Assembly: GCA_031835245.2 (NCBI GenBank)
Contig: JAVKOQ020000003.1
Location: 248,001-312,000 of the forward strand
Direction of reading: 5' to 3'
Source of the DNA: Balamuthia mandrillaris
Taxonomy: Eukaryota
DNA: 64,000 nucleotides
Positions 27,716 to 63,479 of the stretch are shown here, in pieces. Position 1 is the first letter of the stretch, and each line of letters opens with the position of its first letter. Both the position numbers and the translations under genes were made by a program. The notes beneath the pieces were generated by a model that saw only the letters and a list, made by a program, of their open reading frames with translations, was not told the origin of the DNA and searched no databases.

Positions 27716-29531
27716 ATGGGCCAACATCACGCTAAGCTAGACAAAGGTACCGCCGGCGAGGATTACTGTTTACCTTCAGTTCTCTTAGTTGACAATTGTC
27801 TCCGTTAATCAGAGAAGTTGAACAGAACAAGGAACGAAATTGCTCGGGAAATCGTAACCACTGAGGAAAGTTACGTCCAGAGCCTTGATCTTGCAATCAA
27901 TGTCTTTTTTGAGCCCTTGCTGCATAGTCTTTCTAACGACCGTAGTCCTATCCTAAGCGAGTCTGAAGTTACTGCCATTTTTTCTACAATTAAGGACATT
28001 TTCGCTCTTCACGGTAGCTTCTTGTCAAAGCTTAACGAGCGTTACAGCGAATGGACCGAGAAAACCAAGCTGGCGGATATATTTTTGGCGCAGGTGCGAA
28101 GCTCTGCAAACAAAACCATCTGTGCTGCTGACCCACTTGTGCTTTGTCAACTACAGGTAGACAGCTTTAAAGTGTATACCTCATATGGTATGAAACAGGA
28201 ACAAACCCGTCGCTGTTAACTTTGGTTTTTCCTTTCTGCACAAAGGAAAAAACCAAAGTTTGAACAACTTTGTGTTGTTGTTTTTTTTCTGCCTTTTTCC
28301 CCATACTAATTTTGCTTTATTTTTGGTGTTCCATTGATCGGCTTGATCTTGGCACCGCCTTAGTGAACAACTATGACCTCTCGATTAAAACCTTGGTGGA
28401 ATGCCAAAAGCGAAAGAAGGTCATCCGCTTTTTAGAAGGGGTTCACCATGAACATGCAGTTCTGGGTTTGTCAAACTACCTTATAATGCCAATACAACGT
28501 TTGCCAAGGTTTTAGCATCATGATATCATCTTGCTCTATCTTTCTCTTTCCTCCTTTCAATCTTATTTTTGCTTTGCTTGTCTCATCAGTTCTTCGTTTT
28601 TAGATATGTGCTCTTACTTCAAGAGCTTTTGAAAAAGACAACAAAACAGCACCGAGACTACAAAAACCTTAAAAAGGCTATCAAAGAAATGAAACAAGTC
28701 ACTGCATACATTAATGAACAAAAACGAATGGCAGAAGTAAAACAGCAAATGTTAAACCTTCAAAGCCATTTTGCTGAGCCCTTGGTACTTATTTTAAATC
28801 TTTACTAACAAACAAGAACTAATGAACTAAATTCTTATAATTAGGACTTTTTCTCTAATGATCAACGATTATTGATAACCAAAGGACAGTTTGAATGTAA
28901 AGAATCAAATGCATCAAATCTTTTAATTGTTCCTGTGGTTTTGTCTTTTTTTCTATTTACAGATGTTTTAGTATTAGCACAAGAAAGGTAAACCATTTTA
29001 TGTTTATTTATGTTTTTTAATATTCACAAAAATATAAAATCATTTTATTTTATTATTTATGTTTTTTAATATTCACAAAAACAGACAATCAAGAAGTTCT
29101 TTTTTTTCCAGTTTTTTTCAAGCTCCTTTTTCTTGGCAGTTAATAGCATATGCTCCTATAACTAATGTGGAACTGAATTTACATGATTTATGTCAAGGTA
29201 AATTTCTATAAAGATTTTTTTAAAAATATTAATTATATTTTAAATAGGTGCCATATTGACTCTTAAAACCAAAGAAAGTAATTTCAAAGAAGCAAATACT
29301 ACATTTATTATTAATGTTAAAGATAATAATGTTCAAAGTGCTTTACAAGAATTGAAATATGATATCCTTCCATCACTTCAAAAAAAAGCTAAAAAAAATA
29401 ATCATCATTTTATAGATATTATTCCACAAAATGAAACATTTCAAAAAACAAAACTTGTAAAAGATGATTCAAAAATAGAAAAACAAAAAGAAAAAACAAA
29501 TTTAATACGAAGATATACATTAAAATTATAA
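27716..29531 (+). CDS. Dbl-family RhoGEF (DH-PH), multi-exon; the spliced frame is intact
   Basis: EIVTTEESYVQSL, YLIMPIQRLPR|YVLLLQELLK, PH-like FFLFTDVLVLA. Exons splice in frame from ATG 27716 to TAA 29531. Confidence 0.85.
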
Positions 29532-29764
29532 TTATAATTAAGGACAACAAATAAATATTTTAATAATTTCTTTAAAAGTCTATAAATAAACATCTTATTA
29601 CTATTACTACTAATATATGTTTTATTTTAACTATTTTTAAAAGCTTTGTTGTAAGTTATCCTGAGAGGAAAAAAAAGAAAAAGCAAGGAGAGGTAGTATT
29701 TAAGCTAAAAGAATTATCCAAAAAAGAAAAGCAGAGAATATCAACATAAAAGGATAAAGAGAGA

Positions 29765-30033
29765 TGTTAAAAAGGGCAAATAACATGAACAAACAGGGCC
29801 AAAACGTATTATTCAAAGAGGGAACAAAGGAACAAAGGGTGTCAAAAGAGAAAGGTGTGGTGTGAATGAAACAAAACTAACTAACTAAAAGAAAGAAAGA
29901 AGGAAGCAATGGAATAAATGGAAGAAGTCTAGTGATGTGGCAGTAGGCAATTGGTCCATGTCAGGGATGTTGACAGTAAGAAAAGAAAGGAAAGGGGGCA
30001 ACAGAGTTAATATGTTGAGAGTAATTCTCAACA
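29765..30033 (+). mobile_element. Solo copy of the ~269-bp LTR-like repeat
   Basis: TGTTAAAAAGG...ATTCTCAACA, homologous to 35899-36167, with GAGA on both sides (putative 4-bp TSD). Confidence 0.8.
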
Positions 30034-31594
30034 GAGAAAACAACAAGAAAGGAGAAGTTCAAGAAAGGAGAAGTTAGACATTGAGAAGTTTCCTCAGGTT
30101 AATAGGCAAAAAGGAGAGGTCAATATGAAAGAGAAAAAAAGCTAGTATGTTTAAAAAGAGCAAATCAACTCTGTTTCATAAAAACATTCCTATCACTTTT
30201 TTAAAACATAAAACACGTTCTAAACAAAAAAGGACACTCTTTTTGGAAATTATTTTTGATTTAATAATTGATATATATTTATTAATTATTTTTGAAAAAC
30301 ACTGAGTTGGGCCAAAATACCAGTTTTTATAACATTGCTTAGGATACAAATTGTAAAACCTTCAAAGATAATATGACTGGTGTAGTTCCCTTCAAAAAAA
30401 GCAGTTTCTCACTGGGATGTTGGCTAGAATCAAAAGTCCTAGTCTGTGTTGTACTAGTTAATAGGGTCACTGCACTTAAAAAAAAAATGTAGGTCACTGC
30501 TTTTCTCCTGGTAGAACACGTTAGCTATCAACAAGGCCTTGACCAGCCTTTCCCTACCCTTTCCTTCCTGGTAGCAAGGCCCTTGGAGACTCTATGGCAG
30601 GCCCTTTGCTCCTCAGGGCAGGTCCTTGTACTAGAGTGTGCTCATACTCTCTTACCACTGCTGAGCTCCTCCTGGTCATGGGCAGGGAAAATATAGTAAA
30701 TGCTTGAGATATGGGAGAGAATGTGGCAAGAGCAAGCAAACAAGAGAGAAAGAGAGAGAGAAAAAGAAAAAAGAGAAAGAAAAAATGAGAAAGAGAAACA
30801 AGGAAGAAAGAGAAAAGAACACAAACTATGAGAAGAATGAGGAGTGCTAGTACTACCATCAGCGTCATAGTCATGAAGCTCACTGATGAATGCCATCATA
30901 AAGAAATAAAGGATTGGCAGGTCACTACTGCTTCCATTGGTGTCCAGTTGGATTTTTGTCGACATAAGTAACAGAAAAAAGGGAGAAAGGAAAGAAAAGA
31001 AAGGAAAGAAGAAAACAAGAAACGTGCTTTAGTTGTCTGCTGCCTGCTGCAAACTTCAAGTTGGTGAGGTAATCTTTTTCTACAAGCTATCCTTTTACAC
31101 CCTATCAGCACTATATTGCTGATAGGGACTATTTGTGATTATTGTAAAAAACAATAAATATTTACTTTCCTATTCTAATATTTTATTGCAATAATTTTGT
31201 AAAATATCGGTTTTTCCTTGATTTCTTCCACCAAGCGAACAGGATCCACTGCCTCCCTCAAAAAATCAAAATAGCTATCTGCTTGCATGGTGTCCCTTTT
31301 GTCCATAGGTTCACTCACTTGCCCTGCTGTCTCTATGGTACCAGTTTCTAGGCATTCAAGTTCTTCCCAGTCGTCACTGCTTGAGAAGATCGACATCACC
31401 TACATATTCTTTCACTCTTGTCCTGCCAATGATCAAGAAAGACAAAAACTGCTTCGCAGAGTGCCATCAACCAAATCATCAATAAACACAATAATTTTTA
31501 TTGTCTACAAAAACTTATCAGCAATATATTGCTGATAGGCATGTCACAGTATTTTCAACTTTTTTGTAGACAGGATGAAAAAGGATATGTGGGC

Positions 31595-32130
31595 ACTTTT
31601 GTTTTTCTTCAATCTGCACACATGTGCACACCTCCAACAAATCATTTTCTCTTCCTATCCTTTTCTTTTTCTTCAATCTGCACACGCATGTGCACTTCCT
31701 TAAATCATTTTTTCTCCCCCATTTTTTCGTTTTTCTTCAATCTGCACATGCTTGCACACTTCCTATAAATCTTTTTTTACCTCATCACTTCAGTTTGTGC
31801 ACTTGTTATAAATTATTTTCTCTTCCCCATCTTCAATCTGCGCACATGTGTGCACTTCTAATAAATCATTTTCTCTTCCCCATCTTTTTGTTTTTCTTCA
31901 ATCTGTGCACGTGTGCGCACTTCTAACAAATCATTATTTCTCCATCTTTTTGTTTTTCTTCCATCTGCACATGCGTGCACACTTCCAACAAATCATTATC
32001 TCTTTCCCAGCTTTTTGTTATTCTTTGATTTGTGCACATGTGCGCACTTCCTCTAAGTGATTGTCTTTCCCCATCTTTTTGTTTTTCTTCTTTCTTCCAA
32101 CAAATCATTTTCTTTCAAGTGTGCACACTT
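31595..32130. repeat. Degenerate minisatellite, ~60-bp unit, ~8-9 copies
   Basis: Recurrent TTTTTCTTCAATC-TG(CG/CA/TG)n-CAC(T/C)TC-(C/T)AACAAATCATT. Confidence 0.85.
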
Positions 32131-32677
32131 TTAACAAACGTTGATAATACAAAGCCAACACCTCTTTGACAACCACAAGACTTCATGGGATGAAAGCCAG
32201 ACTAGTCGTTGGTTCTAATCTTTCTTTCAACAGCTCTATTGCCCTTTCCTCTTTTCTTTCACAGGTATCATGACTACTCATTCATGGCACTCAAGCGCCT
32301 GTGCTTACATTTTCCTTTCTCTCCTTTCCTCCTTTTCCTTTCTCTTGGTGTACTTTCAAGCAAAGACAGAGATTCCTTCCTGTTGTCTTTTTTAGAATAA
32401 GTCACACTTCACAAACACTTTAACTGCAAGTCAAGAATGAGAGAGTACTTAGAAAAGAAATGTGTTGATGGAAGCAAAAAAGAAGGATACATTTAATGCT
32501 GCTTCCTGCAATGCAAAAAAAGATTCAGAAGTAACATAGAGAACTGAAGGAAGAGTTTAAGGTTAGCAACTTGGTACTCATTCACTCCAAGATGATGTCA
32601 ATTGGTGAGTCTAAGAAACTTTGATATGGTTAAAAAGGAGGACATCATAAGATTATTAAAATCTGTTCACAAACAAA

Positions 32678-32787
32678 GTAAGAGTAGTAAGAGTACACTA
32701 TATATGTACAATGCTTACTTTTTATGTATTGATTGGTGTTGCACTCAGAGTAAATAAACTTCTTATTACTACTATTACTACTACTTA
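32678..32787 (+). mobile_element. 5'-truncated LINE 3' end with (TAC)n tail
   Basis: Matches the 3' UTR of the LINE at ~40510-40607 (GTAAGAGTACACTATATAT..CAATGCTTACTTTTTATGTA..AATAAA..TTATTACTACT). Confidence 0.8.
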
Positions 32788-33552
32788 CAACATGAGAATA
32801 TTTTCTATCCATTTGAGCTATAACATAAAGTACTGCTAAACTACAACACAAGGGTTTGCAGCCTTGCTATTGTTTTGCTGCCTGCTACGGAAAGCGTTTG
32901 AGTTTAAAGAAATTGAAGACTTCTTTTTACAATGTTTAATAGATAAAATAGTTTCTTATCAAAGTGAAGCAACAGATAAAATGTGTTTATTTTTGCTACA
33001 TAAACCCCTGTTCTTCATATTGATACAAAATTGATATTTGTTTTCCCTTTACAAGCTGTGCTACTCTGGTTACTATTCTATTCTTCCTTATTACCTTAAC
33101 TATAAAGTATACTCTTCTTTGTGTTATTCTTCCTTATGGCTTTAGGCAGTTTGGCTGCTTTGACCTTTGAGCTAAACACTAAGTGGATTCATTAATGTGA
33201 TCTTCTCTTCCTTTTTCCTTTCTCTTCCTTTCTCTCTCTTTCTTCTGCTTCTTTGCTTTCCTTTTCTCTTATCTTCTTCTTTTTTCTTTTCTCTCTTGTC
33301 TTTTGTATTTCTTTTTATCTTTGTCTCTATAACTCCTGTTATCACTTCTTCAACAAAAAATACAGATTTTCTCATTGTATCAACAAAGGTTGTGCATGAA
33401 TTAACTTTGTCAATGGGGAAGAAAAAATGCAGAAAAATAAGGCACTGACACGCAAGAGCACTGAATTGATTGATAGTCAGGAGAGGAAACAGGTCCTACA
33501 TCAATAGATGGATCTGGCCATGAAGGAATGTCTTAGACTGGGGACCCTAAAC

Positions 33553-33652
33553 AGTAGTAGTAGTAATAAGAAGTTTATTTGCTCTAGGAGCAACACCACA
33601 CTATATAAAAAGTAAGCATTGTACATACATAGTGTACTCTTACTGCTCTTAC
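33553..33652 (-). mobile_element. 5'-truncated LINE 3' end with (TAC)n tail
   Basis: Reverse complement of the same 3' UTR and tail. Confidence 0.8.
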
Positions 33653-34161
33653 TCCCTCATCCTCAATGCCTTCCCAATTGTTATGTCCCCTAAACAGTAA
33701 TCGTTGGTGGAAGCCTGCTTTGCAACCCATGCAAAAAGAGGCAAAGATCCCCGAATGTTTTGTCAAAGGGGACAAGTTAAATCAGTTTTTGGAGGAAGCG
33801 TTCAAGTTGGCAGTGGAAAAGTATGGGCACCTGAATACTACCACAAGTTTCCCCCTTCCCAAAGGGCTAACCAAAAGGAGCAGGATGACAGAGGTGCAGA
33901 GGATCAGCATAACTTGGTAGTAGATTTGCCCTGCTGAAAGGAAGGGACCAGTGTTGTGCCTGAGAGGAAGATTGATTTGGACTCAGTCAGTGTGGATGAC
34001 ACTAAGGTGTGAACCAACTGTTAAGTGGCACTGCTGTTTGATTGTATTAGCAGTGTTTCTCATGAGTGTAGTAAGCTCTTTGAGGCAGGTGTACTTTCAC
34101 TTGCAGTGATTGTATGATTCAGGGACCTGATTGAATCTCTCAACTAGGAGATTAATAATCT

Positions 34162-53363: not shown

Positions 53364-53684
53364 GTTGGTTTTTTTTTTGGGGGGGTCCAAAAGAAAGAGG
53401 AAGAGAAAAGCCGAGCCGAAGAGAGCTTCACGGGTGATTTGTGCTGCTGCCGATAGGAAGAAGAAAGAAGAAAGCCCGCCCTTCTTCTTCCTTTCTTCCT
53501 TTTTTCCTGTCGACACCATTTCGGAGTACGGCCCCTCAGGCAAACTTATTTTTCCCATGACGACATGGCATAGTGCGCCTCTTCGGGCAACTGTGAGGGT
53601 TATGAAATTGTTTGTTATATTTTTAAATAATTTTTTGGTTTTGTGATACTATAATATACACACAAGTCTAAAGTATCGACGAGC

Positions 53685-55994
53685 ATGAGGGGGAAACGGG
53701 CATACACTCAGCCAATCAACGCTCTTAGGGACAGTGTACGGACTTGGGATTTCCTTCCTGCGAGCTTGCTTGAGAAGACTGCCAGCCAGCTCTACTCCCC
53801 TTGGGAGGAGCTTCGCTACGAAGCCCTGGATGTGCTGTGTAACTATACCGCTCGTCAACTTACCCAAGGGGAGGTGCAGCGACTCCAACTGGAGGATGAG
53901 GTTCTGGAGACAAGACGAAAGTGGTTAACAGGAAATAACTCCTCCTCTCCTCCAGCTCCCAACAAACAAAGACAAGCGCGAACCTATCGTGCTGTATTGC
54001 ACGCTTTGGAAACGAGCGCAGCGAAAAGAGGAGAACTTGCATGGACCAGGTCGGTTGCCTTCCTCAACCATCCCAGCCCAAAGACTCGCTACAAGGCACT
54101 TTCATTCATCAACGTGATGTTGCTGCTCAGTCTTACAGTGGAAAAGGAGGCGGATCGGGGGGAGCATACCATTCGAGCCTTGCTGTCGGCGTTGGCACAA
54201 CAAGGAGTCTTTCAGATAGTGGCTGACACGAAGAACCACCCCTGCACCCGTTCTCACAGATACCAACACCAGATCTCACAATTTGAGAACATTTCTGCCA
54301 TCTCTTCCTTCAACCCTCAGCGCCATGAAGACGCTATCTCGCTTTTCAATCTTTTTCCTTCTTCTGCACTCTCCAACAGAGTTAGCGTTGGGTTTCTTAG
54401 CGATGAGGACGATCAAGAGGACCAAGAAGAAGCAACCAACACGCACCAGGACCGTCGACCTCAACCGCCCTCTTCAGTATTGAGCCTAACGGAGAGCATC
54501 AGTGAGGAAGAGGGAGGATACGACTCCGCCGTAGGTTTGATCAATGCACAGAAAAAGCCCAACAACACAAGCACTAAGAGAAAGACCCGCCGAAGAGGCA
54601 ACACAGAGGATTGGGATAAGCAAGAGAACACGATGACCTCCACTGCTTCAACGAGCGGGAAGGGTCAGCAATCGTGCCACAGAGGTGGTAATAGGCTTCG
54701 CCATAAAAGAAGTTGGAGTTGGGGGGCTCCTTTTCGCATTGTGGACAAGTCCACGTTGTTGAAGAAGAAAGAGGAAAACGGTGCGAGCAACGAGCAAAAT
54801 AACAAGGATGAAAAGAAGAAAGAAGGAAATAGAAGGAGAGGCAACGCCATCAAAGAATATACAACGAATAACATCAAGGAAAGACAACCACCGCCGCACC
54901 AACAAACACTGCCAACGTCTTCAACTACAACTGCACCCATCACCACATCTACAGCCAACAGCAAAAGAAAGAAAAAGAAGGAGAAGAGGAAGAAAGCGAA
55001 GGTGGGAGGCAAGGGTAGCGTACAACAAGGACTACGGCTCTCTCCTTTCTCAGTCTCCAACGATGCCATTAACTACCGCACCTTCTTCGAGGCTGAGGAA
55101 AGGAGAGAAGTGGAGGAGACGAGAAGAGCTTGGCTGAAGGACAGGGAACGCACCCGCCTCAGAATGCAGGCTGAGATGAAGGAAGCGGAGGAGCTTGGGC
55201 AGGCCTCTCTTCGGCGGCGCAGCCATCACCTAGAGCGCTTCTTTGGGGAGAGCCACGTCAACTGGGATGTACTGCAGCGCAATCCTGAGCTGGCTGCTAA
55301 CCAGTTTGCTACCCAGCCTCCCCACGTCAAGCTCTTCAAACTGAATCGTCTCTTTGGCGGAGGAGTTCCTCCTCTTCATTCCCCTTCTGCTTCGCCCTCG
55401 GACTCTGCTTCTTCCTCTCCCCCAACGTCTTCCTCGCCGCCACCAACAGCTTCCTCTGCTCCTTCTTCTTCTTCTTCCTCTCCTTCTTTCTCCCTCATGA
55501 AAACACTCTTTGGTGGTGGCAGTGGTAAAGGTGCAGGAGGCGCTGGAGAGAGAGAAGGCCAGTCCCCATCACCCCCAATAGATCATAGCGGCGGAAACGC
55601 TGCTGTACACCGTTATGACGAGGATGAGGATGACCGATACAGGAGAACCTCTGTGGACATACAGAAGGACAGCTTCCCTTTGTATTCGTCGTCATCCCAA
55701 TGTTCCTCTGCCTCTGCTTCGGAAGATGAAGCGGAACTACGCAAAGTGGAGGTAGAGAAGGCTGGCAACAATGCAGAAGGCTGGGAGGAGGAAGAAGCAG
55801 AGCAACACGAAGAGGAGGAAGAGGAAGAACAACGACAGAGACAGGAGGAACAGGACGAGAGAAGAAGGAACCTGCGGTTAGCTCGGTTTTTTGGAGCTCG
55901 TGTGGATGAAGCTCGTGTGACAGAGCCACGCCGTGTTCCTGATGGATCGCCTTCGTTGATAGCTACTTCGAGTAACCATCTATCTAAAGGATAA
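53685..55994 (+). CDS. Intronless 769-aa uncharacterised protein: helical N-terminus, low-complexity C-terminus with LxxFFG-like repeats
   Basis: Long open frame from ATG 53685 to TAA 55994. No family recognised. Confidence 0.7.
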   Translation: MRGKRAYTQPINALRDSVRTWDFLPASLLEKTASQLYSPWEELRYEALDVLCNYTARQLTQGEVQRLQLEDEVLETRRKWLTGNNSSSPPAPNKQRQARTYRAVLHALETSAAKRGELAWTRSVAFLNHPSPKTRYKALSFINVMLLLSLTVEKEADRGEHTIRALLSALAQQGVFQIVADTKNHPCTRSHRYQHQISQFENISAISSFNPQRHEDAISLFNLFPSSALSNRVSVGFLSDEDDQEDQEEATNTHQDRRPQPPSSVLSLTESISEEEGGYDSAVGLINAQKKPNNTSTKRKTRRRGNTEDWDKQENTMTSTASTSGKGQQSCHRGGNRLRHKRSWSWGAPFRIVDKSTLLKKKEENGASNEQNNKDEKKKEGNRRRGNAIKEYTTNNIKERQPPPHQQTLPTSSTTTAPITTSTANSKRKKKKEKRKKAKVGGKGSVQQGLRLSPFSVSNDAINYRTFFEAEERREVEETRRAWLKDRERTRLRMQAEMKEAEELGQASLRRRSHHLERFFGESHVNWDVLQRNPELAANQFATQPPHVKLFKLNRLFGGGVPPLHSPSASPSDSASSSPPTSSSPPPTASSAPSSSSSSPSFSLMKTLFGGGSGKGAGGAGEREGQSPSPPIDHSGGNAAVHRYDEDEDDRYRRTSVDIQKDSFPLYSSSSQCSSASASEDEAELRKVEVEKAGNNAEGWEEEEAEQHEEEEEEEQRQRQEEQDERRRNLRLARFFGARVDEARVTEPRRVPDGSPSLIATSSNHLSKG

Positions 55995-56100
55995 TATTAT
56001 TAAGAAAAGCACTGTTAGCAAAAGAAAACGTTACCTCATACAACGATAATGCCGTAAAAAGTTGTCTTTCATAAAGAGAGCAACAACAAAATGAGCATTA

Positions 56101-57116
56101 TCACTGTGGAAAAGCTCCTCTACCAAGCCATGCTGTCGCTGGATGGTTATAGCGTCTCTCCTTGTTGAGCGCACTAAGCTGTTGCAGATCCTCCGCGGAG
56201 AGCTCAAAGTCAAATATGTCCTTATTGGCCAGGATTCTCTCCCTCGACACGCTCTTTGGGATAACCACCATGGGCCGCTGCAGGCCCCACCGCAGCAGCA
56301 CCTGGGCCGGCGTTTTGCCGTGTTTTCTCCCTATCTCCTCCAGCAGTGGCTCTTCCATAAGCCGCCTGCCCTCGAAACGATCGCTCCATGGATTGCCTGG
56401 TGAGCCTGTTTTATTTGTTTTTATTAGAAAAAAATGAACTGAAAAGAAAGCAATAGAGCGAGAAGAGGGAAAGAGAGAGAACCAAGTGAAGTATGAGCAG
56501 TGACAACGATGCCCTTGCTCTGACAATACTCAAAGAGGGGCTGGCGAGTGTGATAGGGATGCGTTTCGTACTGGTTGACCGCCGGCGGGATGGAGCACAC
56601 CTTAAAGACCTCCTCCAGGTGCTCCTCCTCAAAGTTGGAGACGCCAATGGACCGGACCAAACCCTCCTCCACTAGACCCTCCATGGCCTTCCACGTCTCC
56701 GCCAGCGGCACTTGGATGACCTGCTCGGCCGAGACGGCCTCCTTGATGCCATGCTGAAAGGACACAGGGAAATGGATCAAATAGAGGTCTAGATAGTCCA
56801 GCTGCAAGTCTTTAAGAGTCTGCAGGCAGGCCTCCCTCACGTGCTCCTTCTTGTGGCAGTCGTTCCAGAGCTTACTGGTGATGAAGAGGTCCTCCCTACG
56901 GATGGAATGGCCGGAAGAGAAGAGCTCGTGCAGAGCGCGACCGACCTCGTCCTCGTTGAAGTAGATGCTGGCGCAGTCGATATGACGGTAGCCGCCCTCC
57001 AGCACCGCAACCTTGACGGCCTCTCCGGTTTCGCCTTCTTTGGCGAGCCAGGTGCCGAGGCCGAGGGCCGACATATCATAGCCAGAGTTCAAACGCAACG
57101 TGGTGCTGCTCTGCAT
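56101..57116 (-). CDS. Aldo/keto reductase, 2 exons
   Basis: LGLGTW, GYRHIDCASIY, REDLFITSKLW, LDYLDLYLIHFP, VRSIGVSNF, AQVLLRWGLQR...IPKS. Confidence 0.95.
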
Positions 57117-57230
57117 CCCCTCTTCTTCTTTTCTTTCTCTTTTCAAGAAGAAGCAGCAGGAGGCAGAGGTATATATTATTTTTTGAACAAGTTTTCTCCA
57201 TTTTTGGATGCTGACGCCTTTTTATGGAAA

Positions 57231-57257
57231 ATGACGTCATAGTTATACGAGGGGTCA
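57231..57257. promoter_or_regulatory. CRE-like palindrome ATGACGTCAT plus GAGGGGTCA in the AKR/FHA divergent promoter
   Basis: Perfect 10-bp palindrome in a ~220-bp divergent intergenic region; function is inferred. Confidence 0.4.
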
Positions 57258-57336
57258 CTTGAAAAAGACCAGAAAAGAAAGAAAGAAAGAAGGCAGGCTG
57301 CCGAAAGAGGAGCACAGGAAGAGAGAGAATCTAGCA

Positions 57337-58867
57337 ATGGAAGGTACCCGCTTTCTCTCGTCTTTCTTTATTTTTCTTTTGTTTCTTCTTCTTTTCTGTT
57401 AACGTAGCAGTTATACTTGTTCTTTCTGCCCCTTGCTTTGGTAGACCTAGATGAAGAGATCCGTGCGCTGCAGCAACAGCGAAAGCTGCAGGATGGAAGA
57501 GCGGCCACCTTTGGCAAAGCCGGCGACTTTGACTCGGACATCTACGGACAACACGACTACGTCTCCTCCATTAATGTTAACGAGGACGAAGACGAGCAAG
57601 CCTTTGAGGACTCACGTCGGCAGGGCTCTTCCTCCGTAAGGCGGTTGGTTGGCAGCTACACTGCTCCAAAGAATGTTCTTCGCGACATTCCCACTGACGC
57701 CGACGCTGATGTATGTTTACTCCTATTTCATTCTCTCTCTCCCTCTCCAGTTCTCTTCCTCTTCTCTCTGACATTATTTCATAAGCCATTTGCAGAGCAT
57801 CGTGTGAAGAAGATAGTGGATAGAGAGAACGATTACAAGAAAAGACGGTTTAAACGGCAGTTGTCACCACCAAGGGATGGCTCTCGCTCCTATCGTGAGA
57901 TCATGGCTGAGCAAAACCTGGACAGGGAACATGAGGTTAATTTTTCTCTCAGTCAGTGTTCTTTTTTCGAAAGAGTTCAACAGCTCACGTTCCTCTTATC
58001 CGCTTTTTTTTATTTTATTTTGCTCTGTTCTTATGCCCTTTTTACCAGAGAGTACTGCAACAAGTGGAAAAAAAGAAAAAGGAACAAAAGGCGGAAATGG
58101 AGAAGCAGATGAAAGAAAGGAGGGAACAGCTCAGAAGAGAAGAGAAAGAGCGACGCAAACTGGAAAAAGAAAAGCGGAAGGAGGAGAGGCGGAAGAGAAA
58201 ACGACAAAAACGAGGAGAGGACGACTCTGGCGATAGCAACAACGAAGAAGCTGAGGTAAAGGAGGAAGAGGAGAACGAGGAAGATGATCCCAGAATGGCT
58301 GCTTGGCGGCATAAACAACCACCAGAGGCTCGTAAACCGGAGCAGCGGTACGTGCTTCATACATTCAAAGCCGGAACCATCCTTGGAGGTACATATCTTA
58401 TCTCTTTTGGTGTATTTCCTCCCTGTCACAAACAAAGCTAAGGTTGATCAAAAAAAAAAAAACAAAAGATCCAATCCCAGTTCACAAGAAAAGCGTGTAT
58501 AGATTTGGAAGAGATGCAGAGCTCAATGATATTGTAACAGCTCACGAAAGCTGCAGTAAACAGCACGCTGTTCTTCAGTACCGAGAAGTGGAGGTTTCTA
58601 CTGACGATGCTAGCGCTGTTAAGCAAGTCCGGTATGTGTCTTCTTTCTTGTTTCTTCGTTCACATATAAGTTTGCTTGCTTATTTTTTTTAACACTCCAT
58701 GGAAAAGACCGTTCTTGATGGATCTGGGCAGCACTAACGGAACAAGTTTGAACGACAAAAAGGTGGAAGCCAATCAATACCACGAGCTAAAAGAGGGAGA
58801 TGCCATTAAGCTCGGCTTCAGCACTCGTTCATATGTGCTTCAACTAGAACGTTATCGCAGAAAGTAA
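57337..58867 (+). CDS. Chimeric splicing-factor-like protein: SF3B1-like N-terminus plus SNIP1/Pml1-type FHA domain, 6 exons
   Basis: SF3B1 N-terminus-like: DLDEEIRALQ..FDSDIYG..YVSSI..SYTAPKNVLRDIP..DPFAEHR..IVDRENDYKKRR..LSPPR..RSYREIMAEQ. SNIP1 FHA: PPEARKP, FGRD, HESCSKQHAVLQYR, MDLGSTNGT, GFSTRSYVL. Confidence 0.8.
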
Positions 58868-58912: not shown

Positions 58913-60509
58913 TCAACTGAGAAGATGGGAGAGTTCGATGCCAGCAAAGATGATAGCTCCAAACCACTTGTTGGCGACAAACTTAGCCATGCAGTCCTTC
59001 CCATTGTTGATGTCTAGGGTGAGGAGCTGCCAAGCCAGATGAGCAGCGCCTAGCCCTGTGCCGAGGTAGTAAGGCCACGCCATACCGGAGGCCATGCCTG
59101 CCGCTACTAGCCCTGCCACCGTCCCGCCGCTGAACAAGGATAGCCACCGCTTTGTCTCTGTGCCAAAGAGCAGCGCTGTGGACTTTACTCCCGCCAACAA
59201 GTCATCTTCTCTATCCTTTTTATTTTAGGGTTCATTGGAGATCAGAAAACGAAAGGGAAAGAGAAAGTGGGGGCGAAGAAAGAGGAGAAGAAGAACAAGA
59301 ATACGAACCTGATGAGCATAAATGGTGTCGTAGACAAGAGTCCAGCAAATGCCAGCAGCGTAGAGAGGAAGAACGGCGGGCAAGTAAAGGCTCCCGGTAA
59401 CAGCAGCCCATCCCATCAGAACGCCATAGTTGAAGGTCAGACCAAGGAAAGCTTGCGGCCAGTATGTGACCCTCTTCATAAGGGGATATGTTCCCACCAA
59501 CAGCAGGGAGGCCGTTCCTAACGCAATGCTGCAATAATTCAGCATTCGTTCGGTGTTGTTGTTGGTGGCGCCAGTGAGATAAGAAACGAAACCATATCAA
59601 AAAGAAAGAAAACAGAAAGAGATAATGTGAACCATGTGTTGTTAAGGGTGAGTAAAATGGCAAGCCCTACGGAGAGTTGTCCAGCAAGGAAGGCAACCGC
59701 CTGCTTTTCTGTGATGGCTCCAGATGCCAGCGGACGTGTTTTTGTGCGTGCCACCTAGTATTGTTTTAACCAGAAAAAGAAAGAAGAGAAGGGAACAATG
59801 GAGAGAGGATGAGAAAAGGCAAGCTGAGAGGAAAGCAGAGAGAGAGAGCAAGCGAGAGAAAGGAACGAATGAGAAGAAAGGCCAGGTTTGCCTTGGAGTC
59901 AATATTACGATCAGCGAGGTCGTTGACGGTGCAGCCAGCGCCGCGCAGCACCAACGAGCCAACGGCAAAGGTCAGCAGCAAGGGCATCTGCAGGGCAAAG
60001 TTTGGAGTGGCCATAGCTATTCCCCACCAACCCGGCCACAGCAGCAGCCATGTGCCGATCGGCTTGTCCAGCCGCACCAGGTTGAAGTAGGGTTGAGCTT
60101 TGGTGGGCACGTACTTTTCTATCCATGAAGAAGCAGGAGGAGAAGAAGAAGCATAGATGGAGCGTAGGGAAAAGAATGGGGAGCGCTTTTGTTTGCGCTT
60201 TTCATCCTTGCCGTTGGTTGAGGGAGGAAGCGAGGACGGCAGGAGCACAGAGGAGGTGGAAGAAGCAGAAAACAAAAGACGTCTGTGCGTGTGGCTAGAA
60301 GCTCCGCTTAAGGAGAAGCGTTGCAGGAACAGAGGAGAAGGAGGAGACAGTGCCGCTGGTCTTGTGCGCAACGGCAATGAGGAGAACCCCTTACGAAGGG
60401 CGTGTCCCGAGAAAGACGCGGATACGTGAGCTTTCCCGAGAAGATTCAAGCCACCGCTCCGCTGCAAGCTTAACATGCAAGACACCGCGAGGGGTGCTCT
60501 CCCTGCCAT
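58913..60509 (-). CDS. COQ2: 4-hydroxybenzoate polyprenyltransferase, mitochondrial
   Basis: [78 protein letters not shown]. Confidence 0.95.
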
Positions 60510-61219
60510 GATTACCGGGTAGGGGCCTGTGCTTCGGTCCCCTTCTCTCTCACAGCCCAACCTTCTTTCCCGCCAAACAACAGCAGCACGGTTCCGATGA
60601 TCGAACCGAACGTCCAATCGGATTTCATATATCGTCATGACGACACGAAATTAGATCATTAAAATTATAAATTTAAATGCCTCCTTAGAATTCTAAATTT
60701 CTTCTCAAATAAAAAAAAGAGTGAAGAAAAAAGAAAAGCAGAAAGCAACATCCATCCAACAAAAACGACGTTTTGGGAATCACATCTACCTCCATCTTTT
60801 TTTTTAAAAAAAAAAACAAAACCTTCGCGTTTTGCCTCTTCTGCGATTTTAATTGCAAGATCTGCAACAAACTCGCAAGAGTGGCTTCCACCGTTTTCCC
60901 CCAAAGATCAAAATTTTCCTGCGTTAATCTCCGCGGAGCAACCAAGCCAATCCCTCCTTTTTGATCGTTTGCTTCACATTTGTTTATTTTTTGTTTATTT
61001 TTTAATTTTTTTTTCTTGTCGTTGGCCACAACGACGGGTCATCATTGCTCTACGCTAAGAAGGTTCGCCATCATAAGTATTTATTTTTTATTTTTATTTT
61101 TTGTATTTGAAATTATTTTTTCCAGCATTATTATTACCTTGCACTTTGTCTTTGTTGCTGCTGATCGTGTCATCGCCTTTTTCTTCAATTATTTTTCAAA
61201 ACCAACCAGCCGATTGGGA

Positions 61220-63479
61220 ATGGAAGCAGCATCCGCTGCTGAGGAGGTTGGGGGTTCAGCAACAAGGGAACTTTTCTCCAAATGTGTTGTGGAGGGCGCC
61301 CGAAGAGGAGGCAACACAAATGCTGGCAACGGTGCCCAGCAGGAGGCACAGGACCCGGCCTCTGACGACAAGGAAGAAGGGGACGACGAAGAGGTGGAGG
61401 AAGAATTGGAGACCCGGGGCCATCAACAACACAAAGCAAGGCAAACTAAACCGAATTTTACCACAACAACGACAACGACAGAGGAAGCACAAGGAGTGAG
61501 CGAACAACCACAAGAAGGAGGCTTTTTGGCGGAAGAAGGAGAAGAGGTGGACGAGGAAGGATACTCCTCACAGTCACAGCCTGCCCCTGTTTTTCGACGG
61601 TTGGTCTACACTTCGCCCACTGCTGAAACTATCACCGTGGAATGTTCCGACGAGGAGGTCCTCGAGATAGAAAAGTCCATTGCTACGCGAATGTCTGTAG
61701 CTATTCGCAAGCGATTAGGTATTTTGTCTGCTCTTTCTTGTTTGGAAACAAACCTCAGTTTGTTGTTATCTTTACACTCCCTACTTACTTACTTTGATAC
61801 AGAAAATTTGGGTCCTGATGCCTCGGTGTTGCATTTGGACAACATAACGGGTCGTGCTCTGGCTAAGGTGATGGAATATTGCTACGTCCACACGGTGCCT
61901 GATACCATTCACATCGACCTCAAGACGTGGGACGATAGATTCGTCCGACTTGACCCTGGCACTCTTTGCGAGCTTGCTTCTGTAAGTATTGTGAACTATG
62001 CTTGTTCTCGTTAATCGTATTCTTCTCGTCGTTTCTTTTCTGTTTTCTCCTTTTTATCTTGTCATAGTTGTCAACTCTCTGCTTTGCCATTTTCTTTGTT
62101 TTGGGTTACACGCAACTAATTATGTGGTGGAACTACTTTGTTAGGCTGCATATCATCTCGAAATCAAGCCTTTGGTGGATCTTACCTGCCAAGCTATTGC
62201 ACAGTTGCTGAAGGGAAAGAGTCCAGCTGAAATCAGGCGGACGTTCAACATTCTCTATGACTTCAGCCCTGAAGATGATGGTGAGTGTCCGACCATTTGT
62301 ATTAGTATGATCTCTACTTATTTACTTTTTATAACATTAGCGCCTCCACCAACAATTCGAGATAAGCTGCGGAATAAACTGTGTAACCCAAAACGAAGAG
62401 AAAAGCCAAAAAGCAACGCTCCAGAAAAAGAACCCGTTGGTAAGTTTCTTTTTTTATTTTTCGTGTTGACCTCATCCCTTGTTTATTTTTTCCTAGTGCT
62501 GAATGTTTATGAAGACACAAGGTCTGTTGATGAACTCGTGTCGTTCATCAATAACGACAGCAAGTCCGGACGGAACAAAAAGCCTGCAGGAAAGGCAGGC
62601 AAACGGGCGCGACAGCGAAGAAAGAAGCAAAAGAAATTGGGTCAAGAACAAAAGGCACAACAAACACAGAACGGCGGTACCACCAAATCACATCCTGGCA
62701 GTTTGCGGAGTTCGCGGGATCGAGACCACGAGAAAGAGGAGGAAGCTCACAATGGCACCTCCACACGACGTATGCTATCTAGCAGTGCCGTTCTGCCTCG
62801 GCAAAGCGGATTGGACCAAGATTCATCGTTCAAGAACGCTGCTTCGCGAGTGCGAACGGACGACGATAACCATTCCTTGCAACACACAACTGACTATGTA
62901 CAGACAACATCTCCTCATTCTTCTCCTCATCACTCTTGTAAAAAAATCGAGCAACAAGCATCTCCAAAAGGTTCGTTAACAAGCGAACAACAGCAACTAC
63001 AGTGGGAAGACACTGACAGCGACAGCAGCATTTCTGAAGAGGAGGACGAGGAAGGAGGCTTGGATAACCAAGAATTGCTTCAGATCTTAGGATTCAACCC
63101 GCAACACCCCACCAGCAGCAAATCCATACAGAAGCTCAACCGTACTAGAGACCATCTTAGTGGCGAGGGCGATGCAGACGGCAACGGAGACGGGCGCTCC
63201 TCCGGTGAGTGCTCTACGCCCGTTGCGCTGGAAGAGGACATTTGGACCGAAGAGGAAGATTTGGATGATATGGACCCGGAACTCAAGGCACAGCAAGACA
63301 AAGAAGTGGAAGAGTTTAGAGTGCGATTAGAACAGATCAACCAGACAGTATGCTACTCTCTCCTCCTTTATTTTTTCTTTTATTAATCTTTTCTCTCTTT
63401 CGCACAGACACTAAACCGGTCGCGGATATCTCTCCCCACAACATTATCACTGGCCTTGATTGACAGTCTACGCAGCTAG
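61220..63479 (+). CDS. SKP1-like protein, type II (long C-terminal extension)
   Basis: LAKVMEYC, WDDRFVRLDPGTLCELAS|AAYHLEIKPLVDLTCQAIAQLLKGKSPAEIRRTFNI, DTRSVDELVSFIN, DKEVEEFRVRL. Confidence 0.88.

Follow-up and report, generated by a model that had tools for sequence, protein, structure and literature searches.

Results

The window analysed here is a 64,000-nucleotide stretch of the Balamuthia mandrillaris genome, and the gene under study lies on its plus strand at 57337..58867. It has six exons (57337-57343, 57445-57710, 57786-57935, 58049-58388, 58469-58631 and 58708-58867) separated by GT..AG introns, and its 361-amino-acid product is letter for letter the NCBI protein P0001 (B. mandrillaris QOT17_000792). 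A second Balamuthia entry, P0002, matches it in 352 of 362 alignment columns and is probably an allele or haplotig of the same gene. The protein opens with a module like the N terminus of SF3B1 and closes with a SNIP1-type FHA domain, and we refer to it as the chimera. Spliced joints for introns 2-5 were observed in RNA reads and contigs, as well as in a run belonging to another study; intron 1, which had no joint among the RNA splice joints listed, is supported by the annotation and by low read depth over exon 1. Another run (X18), carrying the label of another organism, had too little coverage to be used.

The original prediction placed the transition between the two parts within one exon. 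We found the SF3B1-like helix ending at about 58090 and the PPEARKP motif at 58319-58339, both within exon 4. Spliced RNA contigs from two studies (X8 from study P5, 57521-58380, and X7 from study P4, 57521-58341) join the SF3B1-like exons to PPEARKP, which confirms the proposed single transcript, and a genomic contig (X1) covers 57129-58467. Both flanking genes are on the opposite strand, so that there is no same-strand neighbour with which a gene model could have been merged. The single-exon junction and the spanning contigs largely refute a gene-merge or assembly artefact.

Upstream, an aldo/keto reductase gene (56031-57115, minus strand; Pfam E 2.9e-40), one intron of which was seen spliced, stands head to head with the chimera gene, the start codons lying about 220 bases apart. 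Downstream, a gene for a UbiA/COQ2-type prenyltransferase (58913-60650, minus strand) converges on it with only about 45 bases between stop codons, so the 3′ untranslated regions probably overlap. The window also contains a Skp1-family gene (60965-63386, plus strand) with POZ and dimerisation domains and long low-complexity extensions at both ends, whereas canonical Skp1 is short; a 779-aa open frame with low-complexity tracts and no Pfam match (53655-55994, plus strand); and a tract at 28001-34000 with a GC content of 0.31-0.37, compared with about 0.45-0.53 across most of the window.

A PDB search aligned chimera residues 2-155 with human SF3B1 9-180 (E 2.3e-13), motif by motif as originally noted and with similar order and spacing to the N-terminal region of SF3B1/Hsh155 (human aa 1-190). 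The first helix (aa 2-18; 57340..57491, spanning intron 1), which is also a helix in the AF2 model, corresponds to human 9-25. Residues 23-49 (57504..57584) correspond to human ~30-62, a segment modelled on PRP8-RT (PMC13332222). The core of the transferred module (aa 74-155; 57657..58090), with its YTAP, DPF, DRE..Y and SPPR motifs and RSY..IM helix, corresponds to human ~88-180. The match as a whole takes in the part of SF3B1 that contacts PRP8-RT as well as residues 121-177. Scored against a profile of 22 true SF3B1 N termini, most of which came from searches seeded with the chimera protein itself, the chimera reached 128.6 bits; none of 200 sequences made by shuffling its first 160 residues scored above 4.3. 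Exon 2 alone gave no significant PDB match, and two word-index searches with the N-terminal part, too insensitive to show absence, returned only P0001 among 709 candidates and two fungal-type SF3B1s among 531. The AF2 model (pTM 0.43) is confident for the FHA domain and a long helix only and is uninformative on how the two halves pack.

Unlike SF3B1, the chimera has no ULMs, TP repeats, SF3B6-binding region or HEAT repeats, an absence that was already noted for the TP/ULM and HEAT repeats and that bears up here: a motif count over the whole protein gave no TP dipeptide and no RW[DE] motif, and Pfam matched FHA-type families only, with no match for the N-terminal module, the SF3b1 (p14-binding) domain or HEAT repeats. 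A charged helical and acidic linker (aa 156-229; 58091..58312) leads to the FHA domain (aa 230-356; 58313..58849), which PDB alignment and Foldseek assign to the SNIP1/DDL subtype and whose Atlas matches are FHA/SNIP1 clusters. Its best PDB matches were the FHA domains of DDL (Arabidopsis DAWDLE; 2.8e-38) and human SNIP1 (5.8e-32), well ahead of kanadaptin (3.7e-12) and NIPP1 (1.5e-9), and Foldseek with the AF2 model ranked DDL and SNIP1 chains first (DDL, 52% identity and 1.2 Å rmsd). The predicted succession of PPEARKP and a SNIP1-type FHA domain therefore stands, and the lead-in is itself common to the chimera and the RES subunit SNIP1/Pml1/DAWDLE (PDB 5z56_X, 3vpy and 3elv).

The three phosphothreonine-binding residues of SNIP1 (K265, K301 and R365) are kept as K248, K285 and R349, whereas human E366 is replaced by S350; residue identities were read from per-position alignment columns, and human positions were taken from PMC13194972. 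Glutamate occupies the E366 position in 13 of the 16 other family members with a residue there. Two further differences lie ahead of the domain. The N terminus is an SF3B1 module in the chimera and a low-complexity region in SNIP1. SNIP1 also carries, just ahead of its FHA domain, a KPSFELSG-type motif. In yeast Pml1, the alignment to this motif begins at residue 28, within residues 22-42, which bind Snu17 (PMC4515762). A profile of this RBMX2/Snu17-binding motif scored above 10 bits in 61 of 70 SNIP1-type ORFs (25 of the 61 having built the profile) and found no match ahead of the chimera FHA domain. The chimera is not an SF3B1; it is SNIP1-like but fails to show one defining SNIP1 feature.

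The fusion had been taken as a one-off, and this did not hold. A HMMER scan with chimera residues 1-150 gave 169 matches at E values up to 0.001; among the best 150 of these, 18 of the 149 other than P0001 have a related C-terminal FHA domain (two of them truncated), and the remainder are SF3B1s or fragments. The nine chimeras with a species name come from Discosea (Paradermamoeba), Evosea (Phalansterium, Planoprotostelium and Pelomyxa), Dictyostelium firmibasis and Acytostelium (which we take to be Evosea), Paratrimastix (Preaxostyla), Trimastix (presumably also Preaxostyla) and the green alga Chloropicon primus (Chlorophyta); the suggestion to look for the same fusion in related protists thus proved fruitful. 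Three family members derive from transcriptome assemblies. All 19 members share E105, Y108, R115 and Y127 in the module and K248, G268, R269 and S284 in the FHA domain, and a profile of 12 amoebozoan-type members, built without Balamuthia, gave its three best matches to DDL, SNIP1 and human SF3B1 10-207. Databases name family members 'hypothetical', 'FHA domain-containing' or 'Smad nuclear-interacting protein 1'. The RBMX2-binding motif is missing in 16 of the 19 (17 of 20 rows with the second Balamuthia copy) and is kept only by two Chloropicon-type proteins and P0059 (16-25 bits), where the presence of the full SNIP1 motif indicates that the fusion is SNIP1 itself. The gene at this locus is a real spliced fusion of an SF3B1 N-terminal module and a SNIP1-type FHA domain, transcribed as one unit, and it belongs to a conserved family.

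Ordinary SNIP1 genes lack the module, as only 1 of 80 metagenome loci fetched by FHA patterns carries it. On the SF3B1-N profile, 69 of 70 SNIP1-type ORFs scored at most 0.6 bits, and the exception, L020, is itself a fusion; the ten loci with no ORF fitting the pattern were left out of the motif and profile counts, though the scan for the module did include their reading frames. L020 (552-1736 in an 11-kb metagenome contig) is an intronless Chloropicon-type fusion in a single ORF that has retained the RBMX2-binding motif of SNIP1 and has no PRP8-anchor-like part. Three fragments (P0099, P0026 and P0083) carry a linker of the Balamuthia type, and P0099 apparently reads through an intron placed as chimera intron 3; this intron and the shared linker suggest close relatives with the same gene.

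A separate SF3B1 does exist in Balamuthia (P0186, 1162 aa), with a first ULM at aa 69, 17 TP motifs, an SF3b1 domain and HEAT repeats, but the full-length protein that was to be checked for was not what we found, as most of the N-terminal module is absent. P0186 residues 7-39 align weakly with human SF3B1 31-62, a segment of which the chimera holds its own copy (aa 23-49), and the protein scores 26 bits on the SF3B1-N profile compared with 128.6 for the chimera; missing are the first helix and the whole region that corresponds to human ~63-187, including the counterpart of chimera aa 74-155. P0186 and the other SF3B1 entries described below come from a HEAT-region search confined to proteins of 365-1164 aa (120 of 2,104 matches covered). 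This range was guided by the SF3B1 of D. discoideum, which we took to be short; it is biased towards short proteins, and any additional Balamuthia SF3B1 of greater length would have escaped it. In contrast to SF3B1/Hsh155, the module sits on a separate polypeptide: the segment kept on the chimera is gone from the annotated Balamuthia SF3B1, a reciprocal loss. The split is not clean, with a PRP8-anchor-like motif in both proteins. Balamuthia SF3B1 kept the PRP8-RT anchor, and the lost part includes helices that likely adjoin SNIP1.

This internal gap recurs in the SF3B1 of Acanthamoeba castellanii (P0159, 1114 aa; 23 bits) and in P0158 (32 bits). Many other short SF3B1 entries are truncated gene calls whose start lies within the module; in the three separate entries P0186, P0159 and P0158, however, the front motif is kept and the middle is missing, which 5′ truncation cannot bring about. 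Eight further SF3B1s, P0168 (which we assign to Physarum by its label) and seven others, have no module (below 0 bits); a HEAT tree, made by a quick method and with a weak backbone, places them in its amoebozoan part. A further module-less SF3B1, P0272, is placed elsewhere in that tree and may be a truncated gene call. The Flabellula SF3B1 (P0156; Tubulinea) keeps the full module; between it and the ULMs (aa ~160-270) lies an RS/RD-rich insert that resembles the usual low-complexity N terminus of SNIP1. Balamuthia is the only named species from which we have both a chimera and a trimmed SF3B1: the SF3B1s compared include none from Dictyostelium, Pelomyxa, Chloropicon or Preaxostyla, and the named chimeras none from Acanthamoeba or Physarum.

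In a tree of the N-terminal module, a starred clade (97/90) unites 12 amoebozoan-type members, the two Chloropicon-type sequences are placed with SF3B1 modules of the plant type (92/95) and the Preaxostyla pair stands apart, while the placement of Balamuthia is left unsettled. This tree needs five changes but does not exclude a single clade (p-AU 0.17; the bootstrap had not settled). The FHA tree, which left out the truncated P0138 and P0141 and in which near-identical SNIP1 rows were thinned, needs four origins and marginally rejects a single clade (p-AU 0.041, a borderline value given long branches and a simple model). Together, the trees suggest several independent origins of the chimera.

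Discussion

The proposal that SF3B1 and SNIP1 act together, the Rosetta-stone logic behind the original prediction, agrees well with recent work on human splicing. The human SNIP1 FHA domain binds phospho-SF3B1, reading pairs of phosphothreonines through K265, K301 and R365 (PMC13194972). SF3B1 30-62 and 92-100 have been fitted on PRP8-RT in an early activation state using AF3, crosslinks and density, residues 121-177 are visible and ordered in pre-Bact-1, and SNIP1 sits at the interface of SF3B1 394-430 with SF3B6 (PMC13332222). RES contacts the flexible N-terminal helices of SF3B1 in Bact-I, which are disordered once RES leaves (PMC11283556), and the SF3B1 NTD wraps SF3B6 and loses structure as PRP2 removes RES (PMC10208982). 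TP phosphorylation is conserved in trypanosomes (PMC13278848), and in a study of the LECA spliceosome SNIP1 and SF3B1 are two distinct ancestral groups (PMC9887622). Balamuthia likewise has the reader domain and a TP-rich target (17 TP) of the CDK11/phospho-SF3B1/SNIP1 axis (PMC13194972 and PMC13332222), but the N-terminal module, which in the human axis is in cis on SF3B1, is here in cis with the reader.

The account that we favour, and hold to be reasonably probable, is that the chimera is the Balamuthia counterpart of SNIP1, predicted to bind phosphorylated SF3B1 and to supply its lost N-terminal helices in trans during spliceosome activation. A CDK11-type kinase would phosphorylate the TP repeats of SF3B1, and the FHA domain of the chimera would dock on them at the B to Bact step. 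The attached segment, equivalent to human 88-180, would then occupy the place beside SF3B6, HEAT repeats 1-2 and PRP8 that is held by SF3B1's own helices in human pre-Bact/Bact, and the 30-62-like motif may take or share the PRP8-RT site. The covalent link to the module would replace the RBMX2 contact as the second anchor of SNIP1, and the module would depart when PRP2 clears the RES site. The front-end module of SF3B1 would in this way arrive only after SF3B1 has been phosphorylated. S350 weakens the counterpart reading, as it occupies the position of E366 and the human E366G change weakens binding; with no RBMX2 motif, the chimera may not belong to RES at all.

The missing motif also speaks for an alternative that we regard as rather unlikely, in which the chimera is an extra, specialised paralogue: canonical SNIP1 would still build RES with RBMX2 and BUD13, and the chimera would be an adaptor that supplies the module earlier, docking on PRP8-RT before or during phosphorylation. 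Such a paralogue would fit the loss of the motif in 16 of 19 members and the long branches of the amoebozoan FHA domains, but it sits poorly with the full SNIP1 motif of the Chloropicon-type members and P0059, and the amoebozoan profile still puts DDL and SNIP1 first among FHA domains. The original prediction offered 'tether or decoy', and it is the tether that our results favour. A decoy or brake would compete for phospho-SF3B1 and the PRP8-RT site and slow or proofread activation, and it could draw on the two predicted spliceosome-binding modules without a RES-assembly motif and on the anchor-like motif present in both SF3B1 and the chimera. We nevertheless consider it improbable: the segment that the chimera keeps has been lost from the host SF3B1, so that a working replacement in trans fits better than mimicry, and the chimera is conserved across Discosea and Evosea.

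DAWDLE, which provides the best FHA match, has a small-RNA or transcription role. A comparable function of the chimera outside splicing, with the SF3B1 loss as unrelated trimming of the kind seen in yeast Hsh155, has in our estimate a very small probability. According to PMC13332222, budding yeast lacks the conserved SF3B1 N-terminal region, so loss is possible without a hand-over; against this, the SF3B1-derived residues are strongly constrained across the family, and the known contacts of the segment are spliceosomal. Finally, merged gene models, a chimeric assembly or wrongly short SF3B1 models, which the many truncated SF3B1 calls and the unlisted intron 1 joint might suggest, have a negligible chance of explaining the data, given a junction inside one exon that RNA and DNA contigs cross, family members from transcriptome assemblies or, in L020, one intronless ORF, and the same front motif with missing middle in three SF3B1 entries.

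Returning to the chimera as a SNIP1 counterpart, its history may have begun when a duplicate of the 5′ portion of an SF3B1 gene was joined to SNIP1 in place of the original N terminus; SF3B1 would then have lost the region equivalent to human 63-187, or in other amoebae the whole module. A piece of SF3B1 was likely passed from one part of the spliceosome to another. More tentatively, and with more doubt than conviction, SNIP1 may have acquired the module on three or more independent occasions (in Amoebozoa, Preaxostyla, Chloropicophyceae and perhaps the P0059 lineage), each time with loss from SF3B1. A constitutive part of the U2 snRNP would thus have become phosphorylation-gated and dissociable, and RBMX2-based RES assembly would have been replaced in most amoebae.

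We found no description of an SF3B1-SNIP1 fusion in a literature search that covered neither most subscription papers nor bioRxiv supplements, and no mention in Balamuthia omics supplements, for each of which one searchable file was covered and larger data files may exist. The N terminus of human SF3B1 is disordered, and its contacts with PRP8-RT, SF3B6 and SNIP1/RES have been described only in structures and biochemistry from 2024-2026. A natural split that moves the human-equivalent 63-187 onto a phospho-reader provides independent evidence from evolution for a joint action of this segment and SNIP1 in spliceosome activation, and the chimera carried by a Dictyostelium species makes the segment separately testable. 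In much of Amoebozoa, automated labels such as 'SNIP1' and 'FHA protein' conceal an architecture of another kind. The case shows that parts of a core spliceosomal scaffold can be redistributed among subunits, and Balamuthia is a pathogen whose splicing factors differ from human ones at this point.
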